Assembly: GCF_053078305.1 (NCBI RefSeq) | Contig: NZ_CP166879.1 | Length of the DNA stretch: 64,000 bases | Direction: 5' to 3' (one strand) | Shown here: piece after piece, positions 2,759 to 9,090 of the stretch | How positions within the stretch are numbered: position 1 is the stretch's first letter | Layout: every line of letters starts with the position of its first letter | Notes under the pieces: generated by a model | The model's database searches: none | Seen by the model: only the letters and a program-made list of their open reading frames with translations | Told to the model about the DNA's origin: nothing | Made by a program: the position numbers and the translations under genes

Positions 2759-3451
2759 TTAACCATGCTTCCTGTACGTCTGAGGCATGCTCCCGATGAC
2801 CTTACCGAAGATGAATACACGGTTCATCTCGTCTTTCTCGATTGGGTCCCATGGTGAATAGCTCTTGTTGTCAGAGATAACCAGCAGCTTATCCTTCATC
2901 ATTTGAAGGCGCTTAACATGGGCCGTATCGTCGTAAAGGAACGCATAAATCCCGTCGCCGTCGAAAGATTTGATGGCGATATCGACGAACAGCAAGTCAC
3001 CCGGTTCGATCGTTCCTGACATGCTGTCACCGCGTACGTTAATGATGCGGATATTTTCTGCCTTCCTGCCATCGAACATGTGACGAGCATCGTCAAACGA
3101 GTACTCAACCGAGCGTAGGACTTCTACAAACTCACGGTTGATGACACCCGGCCCAGCACTGACTTCTATATCAAGAACGTCAATCTTGAAGTATTTGGAA
3201 TGGTTGACAGTAGGCTTCCCTGATTGTTGACCGTCATTTCTCATCGGGCCTATGCCTGATGAGAGCCACTCTGTTCGAACACCCAATGCATTAGCTATTT
3301 CAACAATTTTTGTTGAGCCGCGCGCGTTGCCGCTTGTCAGTCTCCAGATTGTGGGTTGAGCTACGCCAGACGCCTTTGCAAGAGCGCCTTGAGACATTCC
3401 AGATTGTTCCATCGCTAGGTTTAAGCGATCAGCAAGAGTTTCTTTTTTCAT
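2759..3451 (-). CDS. cI: CI-type prophage repressor (HTH plus LexA-like S24 peptidase domain)
   Basis: N-terminal HTH (MSQGALAKASGVAQPTIWRL), Ala-Gly cleavage site (VSAGPG), GDSM Ser motif and downstream KR Lys. ATG at 3451 preferred over the TTG at 3487 used by the ORF track. Confidence 0.85.
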   Translation of the reverse strand: MKKETLADRLNLAMEQSGMSQGALAKASGVAQPTIWRLTSGNARGSTKIVEIANALGVRTEWLSSGIGPMRNDGQQSGKPTVNHSKYFKIDVLDIEVSAGPGVINREFVEVLRSVEYSFDDARHMFDGRKAENIRIINVRGDSMSGTIEPGDLLFVDIAIKSFDGDGIYAFLYDDTAHVKRLQMMKDKLLVISDNKSYSPWDPIEKDEMNRVFIFGKVIGSMPQTYRKHG

Positions 3452-3495
3452 AAGTTTTAATTTATACGCTTGCGTATTGATGGTCAAAACACGTT

Positions 3496-3529
3496 TTGCT
3501 ATTGCTATGGTTAATACGCATTGCTATTA
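3496..3529. promoter_or_regulatory. Putative OR operator cluster in the divergent cI/cro promoter region
   Basis: ttgctattgctatggttaatacgcattgctatta lies between divergent cI and cro and matches the OL-like motif at 824-863. Confidence 0.45.
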
Positions 3530-3558
3530 TTTATTTGTTGTAATACCAATAGGAATTG

Positions 3559-3789
3559 ATGATGACAAATCAAACCATTCAACTCGCAATCAGTATTACA
3601 GGTAGTCAAAAACGACTGGCAGATCTATGCGGTGTAGCCCAGCCCACTGTTTGGCGTTGGCTACACGGTGGCGGAATTGATGCCCGCTATGTAATGAAAA
3701 TTGTCTCAGCCACTGGTGGAAAGATTAAGCCAGCAGATATTCGTCCCGACCTCGCACCATTGTTTAACGCGAGTAATTCTGCCGCCTAA
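3559..3789 (+). CDS. cro: Cro-like HTH regulator
   Basis: Small HTH protein (RLADLCGVAQPTVWRW) transcribed divergently from cI. Confidence 0.6.
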   Translation: MMTNQTIQLAISITGSQKRLADLCGVAQPTVWRWLHGGGIDARYVMKIVSATGGKIKPADIRPDLAPLFNASNSAA

Positions 3790-3813
3790 TCTGCGGCGTT
3801 AACTGATAAGGCA

Positions 3814-4359
3814 ATGATTATGCAACCACTTACATACCAACAGACTAGCGGATTTAGCCCGACTGCGGTGATAAATCGTTCTCAAACAAAACAGGCGCCA
3901 GGCCACGAAAAAATCCGTGATGCCGTCCGCGCCTGGTCGGCTGCAGATAATCAGGATGTTGTTGCCGCACTCATTGTGAATGAGTATCGGGAGCAGGGCG
4001 GCGGCACCATCGATTTCCCTGATGATGTCAGCCGTGCACGCCAGAAGCTGTTCCGCTTCCTCGATAACAAATTCGATTCTGAAAAATACCGAAATAACGT
4101 GCGTGAACTGACCCCGGCAATTCTGGCGGTACTACCGCTGGAATATCGCGGCCACCTGGTTGTGCAGGATAGCTTCATGGCTCGGCTGGCTGAAATGGAA
4201 AAGGAACTCAGTGAGGCAAAACAGGCTGTCATTCTCAACGCACCACGCCACCAGAAACTGAAGGAGATGAGTGAAGGCATTGTGTCGATGTTTCGTGTGG
4301 ACCCGGATCTGGCTGGTCCACTGATGGCGATGGTCACCACCATGCTGGGGGTAATATGA
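3814..4359 (+). CDS. Hypothetical early regulator in the cII position
   Basis: 181-aa ORF between cro and the replication genes; assignment by position only. Confidence 0.35.
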   Translation: MIMQPLTYQQTSGFSPTAVINRSQTKQAPGHEKIRDAVRAWSAADNQDVVAALIVNEYREQGGGTIDFPDDVSRARQKLFRFLDNKFDSEKYRNNVRELTPAILAVLPLEYRGHLVVQDSFMARLAEMEKELSEAKQAVILNAPRHQKLKEMSEGIVSMFRVDPDLAGPLMAMVTTMLGVI

Positions 4360-4445: not shown

Positions 4446-5375
4446 ATGGCAAACACTGCTGAGATATTCAATTTTCCAGTGCCGGATGTGGCACAAAAGG
4501 AGCCGCGCGTGGCAGATCTCGATGATGGTTATACGCGCATTGCAAATGAGTTGCTGGAAGCTGTAATGCTGGCCGGATTAACACAGCACCAGCTTCTGGT
4601 CTTCCTGGCTGTCATGCGCAAAACATATGGCTTTAATAAAAAACTGGATTGGGTGAGCAACGAGCAACTTTCCGAATTGACCGGGATATTGCCGCACAAG
4701 TGTTCTGCTGCAAAAAGCGTTCTGGTAAAGCGTGGGATTCTTATTCAGAGCGGGCGGAATATCGGCATCAATAATGTGGTCAGTGAATGGTCAACATTAC
4801 CCGAATCAGGTAAGAAAAATAAAGTTTACCTGAAAGAGGTAAATTTACCTGAATTAGGTAAGAAAAGTTTACCCAAATCAGGTAAAGGCACTTACCCGAA
4901 TCAGGTAAACACAAAAGACAAACTAACAAAAGACAATATAAAACCTTTTTCGTCCGAGAATTCTGACGAATCCTCTGACCAGCCAGAAAATGCCCTTCCT
5001 GTGGTGAAACCGGATGCTGCGATTCAGAGCGGCAGCAAGTGGGGGACAGCAGAAGACCTGACCGCCGCAGAGTGGATGTTTGACATGGTGAAGACCATCG
5101 CGCCATCAGCCAGAAAACCGAATTTTGCAGGGTGGGCTAACGATATCCGCCTGATGCGTGAACGTGACGGACGTAACCACCGCGACATGTGCGTGCTGTT
5201 CCGCTGGGCATGCCAGGACAACTTCTGGTCCGGTAACGTGCTAAGTCCGGCCAAACTCCGCGACAAGTGGACCCAACTCGAAATCAACCGTAACAAGCAA
5301 CAGGCAGGCGTGACAGCTAGCAAACCAAAACTCGACCTGACAAACACAGACTGGATTTACGGGGTGGATCTATGA
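4446..5375 (+). CDS. O: Replication initiator O-like protein (contains ori iterons)
   Basis: RBS ggagg before ATG 4446 (ORF track starts at 4356); gene contains the iteron array and precedes P; lambdoid architecture. Confidence 0.8.
   Translation: MANTAEIFNFPVPDVAQKEPRVADLDDGYTRIANELLEAVMLAGLTQHQLLVFLAVMRKTYGFNKKLDWVSNEQLSELTGILPHKCSAAKSVLVKRGILIQSGRNIGINNVVSEWSTLPESGKKNKVYLKEVNLPELGKKSLPKSGKGTYPNQVNTKDKLTKDNIKPFSSENSDESSDQPENALPVVKPDAAIQSGSKWGTAEDLTAAEWMFDMVKTIAPSARKPNFAGWANDIRLMRERDGRNHRDMCVLFRWACQDNFWSGNVLSPAKLRDKWTQLEINRNKQQAGVTASKPKLDLTNTDWIYGVDL
4796..4911. repeat. Lambdoid origin of replication: five ~19-bp iterons (TTACCyGAAwyAGGTAA) followed by an AT-rich tract
   Basis: Direct repeats ttacccgaatcaggtaag / tttacctgaaagaggtaaa / tttacctgaattaggtaag / tttacccaaatcaggtaaa / cttacccgaatcaggtaaa inside the O gene. 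Confidence 0.85.
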
Positions 5376-6073
5376 AAAACATCGCCGCACAGATGATTAA
5401 CTTTGACCGTGAGCAGATGCGTCGGATCGCCAACAACATGCCGGAACAGTACGACGAAAAGCCGCAGGTACAGCAGGTAGCGCAGATCATCAATGGTGTG
5501 TTCAGCCAGTTACTGGCAACTTTCCCGGCGAGCCTGGCTAACCGGGACCAGAACGAACTGAACGAAATCCGCCGCCAGTGGGTTCTGGCTTTCCGGGAAA
5601 ACGGGATCACCACAATGGAACAGGTTAACGCAGGAATGCGCGTAGCCCGTCGGCAGAATCGACCATTCCTGCCATCACCCGGGCAGTTTGTTGCCTGGTG
5701 CCGGGAAGAAGCATCCGTTACTGCCGGGCTGCCAAACGCCAGCGAGCTGGTTGATATGGTTTACGAGTATTGCCGGAAGCGTGGCCTGTATCCGGATGCA
5801 GAGTCTTATCCATGGAAATCAAACGCGCACTACTGGTTGGTTACCAACCTGTATCAGAACATGCGGGCCAATGCGTTGACTGACGCGGAATTACGGCGCA
5901 AGGCTGCCGATGAACTGTCCTGTATGACCGTGCGAATTAACCGTGGTGAGGCTATACCTGAACCAGTAAAACAACTTCCTGTCATGGGCGGTAGACCTCT
6001 AAATCGTGCACAGGCTCTGGCGAAGATCGCAGAAATCAAAGCTAAGTTTGGGCTGAAAGGAGCAAGTGTATGA
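5372..6073 (+). CDS. P: Replication protein P (DnaB helicase loader)
   Basis: 233-aa protein near-identical to lambda P as recalled (MKNIAAQMINFDREQMRRIANNMPEQYDEKPQ...). Confidence 0.9.
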   Translation: MKNIAAQMINFDREQMRRIANNMPEQYDEKPQVQQVAQIINGVFSQLLATFPASLANRDQNELNEIRRQWVLAFRENGITTMEQVNAGMRVARRQNRPFLPSPGQFVAWCREEASVTAGLPNASELVDMVYEYCRKRGLYPDAESYPWKSNAHYWLVTNLYQNMRANALTDAELRRKAADELSCMTVRINRGEAIPEPVKQLPVMGGRPLNRAQALAKIAEIKAKFGLKGASV

Positions 6074-6243
6074 CGGGCAAAGAGGCAATTATTCATTATC
6101 TGGAGACGCACAAGAGCTTCTGTGCGCCGGACGTTGTTGCGACAACAGGTGTGACATTAACCAGCATAAATCAGGCTGCGGCAAAAATGGCGCGGGCAGG
6201 AATCCTGGTCATTGATGGTAAGGTCTGGCGAACGTTTGTTTAA
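6070..6243 (+). CDS. ren: Ren-like protein, short (57 aa)
   Basis: MTGKEAIIHYLETHKSFCAPDV... resembles the lambda Ren N-terminus; ATGA overlap with the P stop; below the ORF-track length cutoff. Confidence 0.5.
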   Translation: MTGKEAIIHYLETHKSFCAPDVVATTGVTLTSINQAAAKMARAGILVIDGKVWRTFV

Positions 6244-6389
6244 CGGTTAGCTACTCAGGATGATAGGGCGGGGCAAGTGAGTATGAAGCGGATTTTCAGG
6301 AATGCCGTCAGAGTTTGGAAATAAAGTGGGTTTTCTAGTGGCAAGAGACTTGATAATATTTAGTTCTTTAAATCCAAGGAGATAGGGTT

Positions 6390-6884
6390 ATGAGAAAATT
6401 TATTTTAGCCTTTGTCATAAGTGCCTCGTTTACAGCAAATGCTGGTGTAGAGAAGTTAGGGCCGTGGATAACAAAGTCTGAGATAAATAAAATGACTGAC
6501 CAGACTGACTTTGTGGCTCTTAATTTATCACCAGATTCATATAACAAAGCAGGTACTGATCGTGCAACTTCACTGGTGTTGCGTTGTAGTGATAACAAAA
6601 CAGATGCCTATTTATCATTCAATGATTATATGGGTTCGGACAACCCAAGAATTACAGTGCGGTTAGATGGCGGAAAGCCGGTCAAGAGTGTTTGGGGAGG
6701 TGGGGAAGGCGGTGATTCTGCATTTGCTCCACAACCAATACAATTTATAAAGACCTTGGCTAAGCATAAAAAAGCTATTTTTGGGTTTGAACCTTATGGA
6801 TCAACTATGCAAGTAGTTGAGTTTGACTTGTCTGAGATTGATAAGGTTGTGGAAAAAATTTCACAGTCTTGCAATTGGAAATGA
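6390..6884 (+). CDS. Secreted hypothetical protein (signal peptide), AT-rich moron
   Basis: N-terminal signal peptide MRKFILAFVISASFTANA; low-GC codon usage compared with flanking phage genes. Confidence 0.5.
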   Translation: MRKFILAFVISASFTANAGVEKLGPWITKSEINKMTDQTDFVALNLSPDSYNKAGTDRATSLVLRCSDNKTDAYLSFNDYMGSDNPRITVRLDGGKPVKSVWGGGEGGDSAFAPQPIQFIKTLAKHKKAIFGFEPYGSTMQVVEFDLSEIDKVVEKISQSCNWK

Positions 6885-6904
6885 CAAAAAAATTTCATAT
6901 GAAC

Positions 6905-6930
6905 CCAGTTGGCGCTGGGTTTTTTATTTC
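6905..6930 (+). terminator. Intrinsic terminator after the secreted-protein gene
   Basis: cccag-ttggcg-ctggg hairpin followed by ttttttatttc. Confidence 0.4.
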
Positions 6931-7237
6931 AGTAGCCAATAATGCATTCAAAATCTCTTACTTGAGAAACGGCCTATTTGAGATTTCAGTCGTGGCAGGA
7001 TGATCAGTTGATTCGAGTATTGACGCATTTGCGTCATAATAGATTGCAGTAATTTCATTGCACTACGTGAACTGGTCATGACTCGTCACCGATTTTGTAG
7101 GATGCTTAGAAGGAAAACTATTGAATGCCACTGCAGCAGCACAACAGCTGGAGGTAAAATGAAGAACAAATTGACGGGAATTAGCATAGATACAAATCAA
7201 AGCTCTTAGAGGGCTTTTATTCTATGATAAATGGACT

Positions 7238-7582
7238 TTGTTTGAGAGTGATATTATGAAACCGAAGAAACTAAGAGCTGAGCAGCAGTACCATTTAGAC
7301 CTTGAATTAGTAAAGAAGAAGCCAGCGAACCGCACCGAGGCAAAAGCCCATTTGGCGGCACAATTACGGATTAGCAAGTACAAGACGCAGGCCTCTTCCA
7401 AAATTCGCGTTGGTAGTTTCAAGGGAAGAAAGAAGGTGCATTTTAGCCAGGCGGAAGAAGATGCTAGGAAGGCAATGGCTAAAGCTAATGCAGTTAGGTT
7501 TTCAGAAGGTGAGGTTGAATCCGTTGATACAGAAAGAATATCAGAAAGTAACAAACGCTGGCGCGGGAGAACCGCTGACTAA
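7238..7582 (+). CDS. Basic hypothetical protein (Lys/Arg-rich)
   Basis: 114-aa ORF; probable start at MKPKKL (7256); no family recognised. Confidence 0.35.
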   Translation: MFESDIMKPKKLRAEQQYHLDLELVKKKPANRTEAKAHLAAQLRISKYKTQASSKIRVGSFKGRKKVHFSQAEEDARKAMAKANAVRFSEGEVESVDTERISESNKRWRGRTAD

Positions 7583-7686
7583 TGTCTGATTTAGATATTG
7601 CAGCAAAGCTGTATGAAGAAAACACATTCATGGGCAGATGTGACATTACAGGGAGTTTTAGTTTTCAATTGCTGAAGACATCGAAT

Positions 7687-7710
7687 CATATTCATATTCA
7701 TATTCATATT
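7687..7710. repeat. Hexanucleotide microsatellite (CATATT)x4 in the 5' region of gene 7728-8273
   Basis: Four perfect tandem CATATT units ending 17 nt upstream of the ATG at 7728. Confidence 0.9.
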
Positions 7711-7727
7711 GTTTTGAGGGGTAATTT

Positions 7728-8273
7728 ATGGATGCAGGGATAGCCTCAGTTGTCGCCGCAATTATTGCCGCAGCTGCAGCTGGAGTGGGGCTTGTTATCA
7801 CTAAGGAGAATAAAACATCTGAGTTTCGGCAAGCGTGGATAGATGGTTTAAGGGAAGAGTTAGCCGAATTGATGGAGAACTTTTTACAATTACGCACGAC
7901 TCCGCCTGAGAAGCTCCCTGAGGTGGCTGGAAAAATTTATTTTCTTTCCGCAAAAGTGAAGCTTAGGTTATCCAGTAAAAACTTAACTAATGAAGAGTCT
8001 CAGCTTTTGAAAATCATTGAGGATTACATTTTAAAAATGGATCGCTCATCTAACATTACAGATGTGGTCAGACAGTATTTTGAATATAGTTCCAGTGTTC
8101 TTAAAACTGAGTGGGAGAGAGTGAAGCGAGGCGAGAAAAAATACAGAGTCGCTATCACGGTTTCGTACTCAATATTGGTTTTTTTGGGGCTCTATTTTGC
8201 TTCACGTTTCATTCCAGCGATAAGTGAAAAAATCTTAGAAATTATAGAGTTTTTAAATTATTCGTTGTTCTGA
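7728..8273 (+). CDS. Hypothetical membrane protein (hydrophobic segments near both termini)
   Basis: 181-aa ORF; hydrophobic N-terminal (IASVVAAIIAAAAAGVGLVI) and C-terminal (VAITVSYSILVFLGLYFA) segments; RBS gagggg. Confidence 0.5.
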   Translation: MDAGIASVVAAIIAAAAAGVGLVITKENKTSEFRQAWIDGLREELAELMENFLQLRTTPPEKLPEVAGKIYFLSAKVKLRLSSKNLTNEESQLLKIIEDYILKMDRSSNITDVVRQYFEYSSSVLKTEWERVKRGEKKYRVAITVSYSILVFLGLYFASRFIPAISEKILEIIEFLNYSLF

Positions 8274-8464
8274 TGACAAGCTTTGATTTTCCATAATCAA
8301 CTTGTCATAATTAAGTCACCGGAGCCTGAACAACTCCGGTGACTTCTGCGCTAAACGGGGACGTTTATGCGCACATACAATCCAAACTCTCTTCTCCCTT
8401 CACAGATGCAGAAATGTACCTGCGATTTTTTGCATCCAGCGTTTGACCTCTGCGGAGGTGAATC

Positions 8465-8920
8465 GTGAACCTCCTACAAGATGGCATCAAATTGCATCGC
8501 GGTAACTTCACCGCTATCGGCCAGCAGATCCAGCCTTATCTGGAGAACGGAAAATGCTTTCGCATGGTGCTTAAACCGTGGCGTGAGAAACGCAGTCTTT
8601 CCCAGAATGCACTCAGCCACATGTGGTACAGCGAAATCAGTGAATACCTCATCAGCAGGGGGAAATCGTTCGCTACTTCAGCATGGGTAAAAGATGCTCT
8701 CAAACACACATACCTCGGTTATGAAACCAAGGACCTGGTTGATGTCGTAACCGGCGAAATCACTACTATCCAGTCGTTACGCCATACCTCCGATCTTGAT
8801 ACCGGAGAGATGTATGTCTTCCTGTGTAAGGTTGAAGCCTGGGCGGTGAATATTGGCTGCCACCTGACTATTCCGCAGAGCTGCGAGTTCCAGCTGCTGC
8901 GCGACAAGCAGGAGGCGTAA
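8465..8920 (+). CDS. ybcN: NinB/YbcN-like nin-region protein
   Basis: 151-aa ORF at the head of the DLP12-type order ybcN-ninE-ybcO-rusA-ylcG-Q; contains an S-Q-N motif. Confidence 0.5.
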
Positions 8921-9090
8921 TGGCTACACCGCTTATTCGTGTCATGAACGGACACATCTACAGAGTACCAAATCGTCGTAAGCGTAAACCGGAGCTGAAG
9001 CCTTCCGAAATACCAACACTGCTCGGATATACCGCCAGCCTGGTTGATAAAAAATGGTTGCGACTGGCAGCAAGGAGGAATCATGGCTGA
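8920..9090 (+). CDS. ninE: NinE-like small basic protein
   Basis: 56-aa ORF ([30 protein letters not shown]...); ATG overlaps the preceding stop; below the ORF-track cutoff. Confidence 0.5.
   Translation: MATPLIRVMNGHIYRVPNRRKRKPELKPSEIPTLLGYTASLVDKKWLRLAARRNHG

Follow-up and report, generated by a model that had tools for sequence, protein, structure and literature searches.

A low-copy CATATT microsatellite, probably born in a recombination scar, upstream of a membrane-protein gene in one Escherichia coli prophage lineage

The closest described counterparts of the repeat reported here are SSR tracts of Haemophilus influenzae. Expression of hmw1A is controlled by a 5′ leader SSR, (ATCTTTC)n, with at least 11 units (PMC12721329), and the (TA)n tract of hifA/B is a promoter-spacer SSR (PMC2651432). 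Screening in the same organism used a permissive threshold of at least 3 units for hexanucleotides, and (TTAAAA)2-3, located 19 bp upstream of HI0525, was recorded as strain-variable with no demonstrated role (PMC2651432). A review of phase variation emphasises that switching rate depends on the number of repeats and that mutation in these tracts is 100-10,000 times faster than background; the phase-variation mechanisms that it gives for E. coli are inversion and methylation (PMC11868660).

The tract examined here lies in a lambdoid prophage within a 64-kb stretch of DNA (the window). An earlier note, made from this DNA alone, had described four perfect CATATT units ending 17 nucleotides (nt) upstream of the ATG of a gene for a membrane protein, which has 181 amino acids (aa), and had proposed that slippage in the repeat may cause phase-variable expression. 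Sequence reading and Tandem Repeats Finder both confirm the arrangement. Like the tracts at hmw1A and hifA/B, this is a short-unit perfect repeat just 5′ of an envelope-protein gene, with a strain-variable count. However, unit numbers in those systems are high (at least 11 at hmw) and their alleles span a wide range, whereas the CATATT tract has 3 or 4 units. Their mechanisms involve an RNase III-cut hairpin or −35/−10 spacing, while for the CATATT tract no hairpin is predicted and no spanning promoter was found. The HI0525 tract is more alike, being also a hexanucleotide, with the two present in 2-4 copies, ~17-19 nt from the start codon and differing by one unit between strains, but it belongs to another organism and gene, and the CATATT tract is traceable to a prophage recombination scar. 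Use of low-copy microsatellite tracts for switching is not known from E. coli. The CATATT tract is probably a low-copy microsatellite that came from such a scar in one E. coli prophage lineage, slippage-prone and neutral or nearly so, rather than an on/off switch.

Tandem Repeats Finder places the repeat at 7686-7710 with period 6, 4.2 copies and 100% matches. The 17 nt separating it from the ATG (7728), GTTTTGAGGGGTAATTT, include the Shine-Dalgarno (SD) sequence GAGGGG. As a perfect tandem repeat with a unit of 1-9 nt that is tied to a gene, the tract has what SSR contingency loci need. It is the sole perfect repeat in the window with a unit of 4-9 nt and at least 3 copies, and because 0 of 200 composition-preserving, block-wise shuffles of the window held a repeat of at least 4 copies, it is not a product of chance.

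The nin-region setting and AT-rich cargo described earlier are borne out by GC content and by RefSeq gene order. The cargo sits between ren and ninB of the prophage, and GC over 6250-8350 is ~0.37-0.45 (mostly 0.37-0.42), with ~0.49-0.58 in the flanking phage genes. In identical prophages, RefSeq annotates in the 5′ part an S24 repressor, a cro-like regulator, YdaT, replication O, replication P and a ren pseudogene, then a 164-aa ‘TagO’, a 108-aa hypothetical protein, the 181-aa hypothetical protein and a 33-aa ORF, and finally ybcN, ninE, ybcO, rusA, ylcG, quuD and a porin. Throughout the 14 related prophages described below, the ren gene (6070-6338) is a pseudogene with a frameshift and an internal stop codon, so the cargo adjoins a decayed ren. 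The cargo shows marks of a moron, namely a place between conserved phage genes, deviant composition and absence from relatives: it is present in 14 of 5,426 genomes, and its flanks are widespread. Like lambdoid nin-region morons, it is AT-rich cargo between ren and ninB that is mostly absent from related prophages. Neither a convincing promoter nor a convincing terminator belonging to this copy was detected: the scan gave no promoter of at least 9/12 upstream and no T-run terminator after 8273. In the Klebsiella and Pantoea homologues a terminator stands directly 3′ of the gene.

Two neighbouring genes had also been singled out. The 164-aa product, described as secreted, starts with a signal-peptide-like sequence. 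RefSeq names it ‘type VI secretion system-associated protein TagO’, a name that NCBIfam did not reproduce (a weak VasI match, E 0.026, scoring 14 bits where the cutoff is 124). The other neighbour is lysine/arginine-rich, in agreement with its description as basic, although its annotated start is 7256 and not 7238 as previously given. Between these genes, 6885-7255 forms 370 nt without a convincing ORF in which Rfam recognised nothing, and the hairpin at 7199-7217 could be the terminator of a separate short transcript. Over 5500-9000 as a whole, Rfam found no known RNA families. The right edge of the cargo is the conserved segment 8283-8345, found at 83-93% identity in more than 2000 E. coli genomes and in phage 82; the 70 nt at 8282-8350 are also present in other lambdoid phages. 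The phage 82 record annotates the area of the hairpin at 8313-8345 with a possible regulator-binding site and −35 and −10 signals, and a G/A polymorphism, SNP 8324, affects the stem base adjoining the loop of this hairpin. A separate 19-nt tandem repeat (2.2 copies) at 4820-4861, in the replication O gene, probably represents origin iterons, by analogy with lambda.

Table 1. Features of the cargo region, with positions in the window unless another sequence is named.
Feature	Position	Strand	Remarks
164-aa protein with signal-peptide-like N-terminus	6390..6884	+	PHROG 1848
Intrinsic-terminator-like hairpin and T run	6901..6922	+	After the 164-aa gene
Intrinsic-terminator-like hairpin and T run	7199..7217	+	Just 5′ of the basic-protein gene
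108-aa basic hypothetical protein	7256..7582	+	PHROG 14068
Theta 5′ stump, ~14 codons, MSDLDIAAKLYEEN	7582..7625	+	Truncated prophage HolE/Hot-like gene
Filler	7626..7686	+	No detectable homology to theta or to other 2TM cassettes
(CATATT)x4 perfect hexanucleotide repeat	7687..7710	+	Sequence reading, Tandem Repeats Finder
SD sequence GAGGGG of the 181-aa gene	7717..7722	+	Clear homology to the Enterobacter cassette begins here
181-aa membrane protein (TM1, four-helix bundle, TM2)	7728..8273	+	RefSeq WP_021557039.1 ‘hypothetical protein’
Promoter-like TTGATT-17-CATAAT	8283-8311	+	Within the conserved lambdoid segment 8283..8345
Strong hairpin (AAGTCACCGGAG ... CTCCGGTGACTT), no T run	8313-8345	+	3′ of the cargo
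Theta genes near the 2TM gene in other prophages	L015 6627-6884; L017 5441-5683; L035 2848-3099		

The 145-nt ‘intergenic’ stretch that carries the repeat is a composite. The segment 7205-7620 has a match of 83-84% identity in nine other E. coli genomes, where the match ends within a gene whose annotation is ‘DNA polymerase III subunit theta’. The basic-protein gene elsewhere precedes an intact theta gene: in two of the nine genomes, L031 and L032, these genes are joined by the same TAATG overlap that opens an unannotated 53-aa ORF (7582-7743) in the window, and theta is 82-84 aa long. The intact protein starts MSDWNIAAKPQEE and the ORF of the window starts MSDLDIAAKLYEE; nucleotide homology stops near 7625, and 7626-7716 shows no significant similarity to the remainder of theta. 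A reading of the filler as decayed theta is unsupported, as the observed score was reached by 12 and 420 of 500 shuffles. Since a theta stump is followed by filler with the repeat, and this by a cassette that starts at its own SD sequence, the stretch is a scar. Only the 5′ stump of theta remains in the window; in Klebsiella, Pantoea and Yersinia prophages (L015, L017 and L035) a theta (HolE-like) gene lies within ~3 kb of the gene for the membrane protein (the 2TM gene), in a shared accessory region.

Copy number was compared among related prophages, as the earlier note had suggested. A megablast search of 5,426 complete E. coli genomes found the segment 7200-8290 in 14 of them, and no E. coli relatives of the intergenic segment more distant than these 14 were detected. 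Metagenome contigs were scanned with both flanks and a gap permitting 1-6 units, which yielded two further copies, the first allele (3 units) and the second (4 units) being represented once each. The resulting small sample of 17 sequences (the 14 genomes, the window and the two metagenome copies), drawn from two haplotype clades, comprises ten sequences with 3 units and seven with 4. Nine of the 14 genomes carry 3 units, and 4 are found in the window and in the other five (L001, L006, L007, L008 and L014). No other unit number occurs in the 17 sequences, even with the metagenome pattern open to 1-6. The immunity region of the window (3200-3820) is wholly unlike that of L001, although the prophages are otherwise near-identical, so the prophage of the window is a mosaic relative that is not among the 14. 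Strain ET201 (L010, L037) carries the prophage region twice, ~40 kb apart and with many frameshifted genes, which reflects either a duplication or an assembly problem. Its second copy also has 3 units, as judged by a match length of 202 nt, and was left out of the 17.

An alignment of ~9 kb separates the two clades. Clade B consists of seven genomes, every one with 3 units, and in clade A L002 and L003 have 3 units and the remainder 4. The closest comparison is that of L002 with the 4-unit L001, which differ by one 6-bp unit and 2 substitutions over ~9.1 kb, with 0 substitutions in the 2.2-kb cargo; copy number thus differs between close strains, as it does at SSR contingency loci, and the near-identity of the pair implies that the unit change is recent. 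SNP 8324 places the 3-unit L002 among 4-unit genomes and excludes the window, which itself has 4 units. A clonal tree with just one unit change does not fit this grouping, and there were probably two events, or one event and recombination. Recombination or homoplasy is also evident at the locus from site 6635. Overall, one or two unit-change events explain the allele pattern. Because at least one unit event compares with ~13 substitution sites in 2.2 kb, the tract appears to change far faster than a single base, yet the allele spectrum is minimal despite this fast unit change. As the count varies even within a near-identical pair, slippage is supported as the probable cause of the polymorphism. 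Since near-identical prophages differ by a unit, copy number is not invariant; invariance was the outcome that the earlier note had named as contrary to its proposal.

The repeat might be a genuine contingency element, a phase switch or rheostat in which slippage in the leader or promoter alters expression of the membrane protein and creates heritable, reversible heterogeneity among lysogens. The difference in unit number between near-identical prophages, the position of the tract beside the SD sequence and 17 nt from the ATG, and the match of every unit to four of the six positions of a −10 hexamer would all suit such an element. Moreover, its hexanucleotide units, numbering at least 3, pass the H. 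influenzae screening threshold (PMC2651432), and 5′ UTR SSRs can control expression, as at hmw1A (PMC12721329). We nevertheless regard this explanation as quite improbable. Switching rate scales with repeat number (PMC11868660), but the 17 sequences have 3 or 4 units only, compared with at least 11 at hmw (PMC12721329). The hypermutable length and many alleles of SSR contingency loci are not seen, and the allele pattern requires just one or two events.

The predicted consequences of a unit change also argue against a switch. The unit is 6 nt long, a multiple of three, so no reading-frame shift is possible. A consensus scan revealed no sigma-70-like site of at least 9/12 upstream of 7728 on either strand, and a promoter of that quality spanning the tract is therefore rejected; constructs with 1-6 units reached 8/12 at best. 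The best candidates on the + strand, AAGACA-18-CATATT and TTTTCA-19-CATATT (both 8/12), use a unit itself as the −10 element, which means that −35/−10 spacing is fixed and only the leader shifts by 6 nt. Leader folding with 3 versus 4 units gives a predicted SD accessibility of 0.34 versus 0.33 and an AUG accessibility of 0.60 versus 0.58, and a leader RNA structure sensitive to unit number is not predicted for 0-7 units. By these computations, a unit change alters neither frame, promoter spacing nor leader structure. In addition, the homologous genes of five other prophages, including those of Klebsiella, Pantoea, Enterobacter and a 76%-identical relative, are repeat-free upstream. With 3-4 units, an in-frame unit, no promoter of at least 9/12, unchanged predicted accessibility of the ribosome-binding site and repeat-free homologues, the proposal of phase-variable expression finds no support.

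We think it equally improbable that the tract serves as a cis element, in which overlapping weak −10 boxes or an array of protein-binding sites would give the cargo its own transcription in the lysogen, making up for the loss of what originally lay upstream, with copy number incidental. The 8/12 candidates that take a unit as −10 point in this direction, as do the two upstream terminators, which would make read-through from pR unlikely in a repressed lysogen. Other family members also follow AT-rich upstream regions, two of them with their own terminators. However, the candidates fall below the 9/12 threshold and are no better than expected from shuffles, and in clade B a SNP at 7678 turns the AAGACA −35 element into the weaker AAGGCA. 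No known binding motif was recognised in the units; likeness to Fur, IHF and OmpR-type motifs, judged by eye, was unconvincing.

Finally, the 53-aa ORF, in which the tract reads HIHIHIHI, might be a real small protein, or an upstream ORF in translational coupling with both neighbours, in which (His-Ile)n varies the peptide and not expression. It begins in the TAATG where the upstream gene stops, extends 13 nt into the 181-aa gene, is open in 15 of 15 aligned sequences and keeps its frame through 6-nt changes. Even so, we consider this very improbable and reject it as a genuine gene, because its first 14 codons are the theta stump fused to unrelated sequence without a homologue, PHROGs, NCBIfam and PADLOC gave no match, RefSeq leaves it unannotated, and the stretch varies more than either neighbouring gene, 3 of its 5 changes being non-synonymous (codon positions assigned by hand). 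The variable sites number 5 in the 145 intergenic nt versus 6 in the 546 nt of the 181-aa gene and 1 in the 327 nt of the basic-protein gene, which indicates weaker constraint and fits non-coding DNA.

The reading of the tract as a scar-derived, slippage-prone microsatellite would involve the following steps. The tract would have arisen in one E. coli prophage lineage and stayed confined to it. The theta (HolE-like) gene that normally lies 3′ of the basic-protein gene was cut after ~14 codons, and an unrelated filler of ~90 nt that contains the repeat links the stump to the SD sequence of an imported membrane-gene cassette. Replication slippage would then add or remove one 6-nt unit far faster than bases change, producing the 3/4-unit polymorphism, and each change would only resize a leader that is AU-rich, unstructured and immediately 5′ of the ribosome-binding site. 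If only leader length changes, expression should be affected not at all or at most to a small, graded extent. AU-rich leaders can boost translation, so one extra unit may have such a graded effect, and because each unit resembles a −10 hexamer at 4/6 positions, weak promoters missed by consensus scans could be affected. From these sequence-based predictions we infer that the unit change is neutral or nearly so.

The protein encoded downstream has hydrophobic segments at both termini, as had been noted, at residues ~1-27 and ~139-166. Searches of Pfam, PADLOC (best match E 0.029), PHROG, NCBIfam and PDB sequences returned nothing significant, and tblastn against 50,697 phage genomes gave no match; no homology to a described anti-phage defence or superinfection-exclusion family was detected. 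A bestrophin-like domain (PF14023) was considered and rejected (E 0.16 for the query, and no match at E ≤0.001 among 81 family members). The gene is one member of a large family that has no name: one search recovered 333 related proteins, and an exhaustive search 1,181 clusters at 50% identity, 406 of them with E 1e-10 or better. An alignment of 81 members has invariant K26, K29, R34, Q35, W37, R42, W129, G135 and E136, and two motifs, KExKTSEFRQAWIDxLR and VLKxEWERVKxGE, beside the membrane helices.

An AlphaFold2 model of the protein is confident (pLDDT 95.2, pTM 0.80), with helices at residues 3-54, 60-80, 88-101, 110-134 and 137-180 that make up TM1, a four-helix bundle and TM2, and the protein ends ~15 residues past TM2. 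Across the family the N tail lacks Lys/Arg, and the flanks of the bundle carry on average 3.1 and 5.1 of these residues. By the positive-inside rule, this Lys/Arg distribution places the bundle in the cytoplasm, and the protein is predicted to be an inner-membrane protein with a cytoplasmic four-helix bundle between two TM helices. The nearest folds in PDB and AFDB50 searches show a generic helical-bundle or sensor-module likeness (TM-score ≤0.60, E >0.001), and a viral structure set contained nothing similar. The sensor modules of NarQ, QseE and 4HB_MCP chemoreceptors have the same helix arrangement, with TM-scores up to 0.60. However, these have a periplasmic bundle and a cytoplasmic output domain, whereas the 181-aa protein has a predicted cytoplasmic bundle and no output domain. 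Pfam and PDB-sequence searches found no sequence relationship to these sensors, and the protein does not qualify as a four-helix-bundle sensor module of the 4HB_MCP/NarQ type.

The genomic context of the family was sampled at twelve places. Five are accessory slots between the replication genes and a Q-type antiterminator in lambdoid prophages (the E. coli lineage, Klebsiella, Enterobacter, Kosakonia and Yersinia), and the 76%-identical relative (L038) likewise occupies a replication-to-Q slot. Two lie at a prophage end beside the integrase (Pantoea and Limnobaculum), two adjoin integrases or other mobile-element genes, and one has ordinary chromosomal surroundings. The remaining two are among defence-type genes: the Shewanella member adjoins an OLD-TOPRIM ATPase and a UvrD helicase, and the Marinobacter member is found among TIR, SocA/Panacea and DUF4145 genes. 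In the Kosakonia prophage (L034 2825-4819), genes for an AAA_21 ATPase and RloB stand just upstream of the family member, a pair that resembles AbiL-type defence pairs and that suggests that the accessory slot collects defence cargo. There was no conserved partner gene across the twelve places. These contexts and the lack of a constant partner support a stand-alone accessory gene of mobile elements, and for the 181-aa protein such a stand-alone accessory role in the prophage is most likely. A phage-exclusion or defence role is plausible by genomic association and is the leading guess at its function. A bolder version, in which a single-gene exclusion or abortive-infection family (TM, cytoplasmic bundle, TM, with KExKTSEFRQAWIDxLR and EWERVKxGE) populates prophages and defence islands and the repeat tunes its output in the E. 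coli lineage, strikes us as doubtful.

For the biology of this prophage lineage, the repeat itself carries little weight: it adds one case to the known low-copy microsatellite polymorphisms. It does offer a clear case of a repeat that originated in a scar left by recombination, and it may serve as a strain marker for the lineage. The membrane-protein family, large and unnamed and with a confident structure model, is the more useful lead. As a single gene that recurs in the lambdoid slot and beside defence genes, it would be a cheap candidate for a phage-challenge test.
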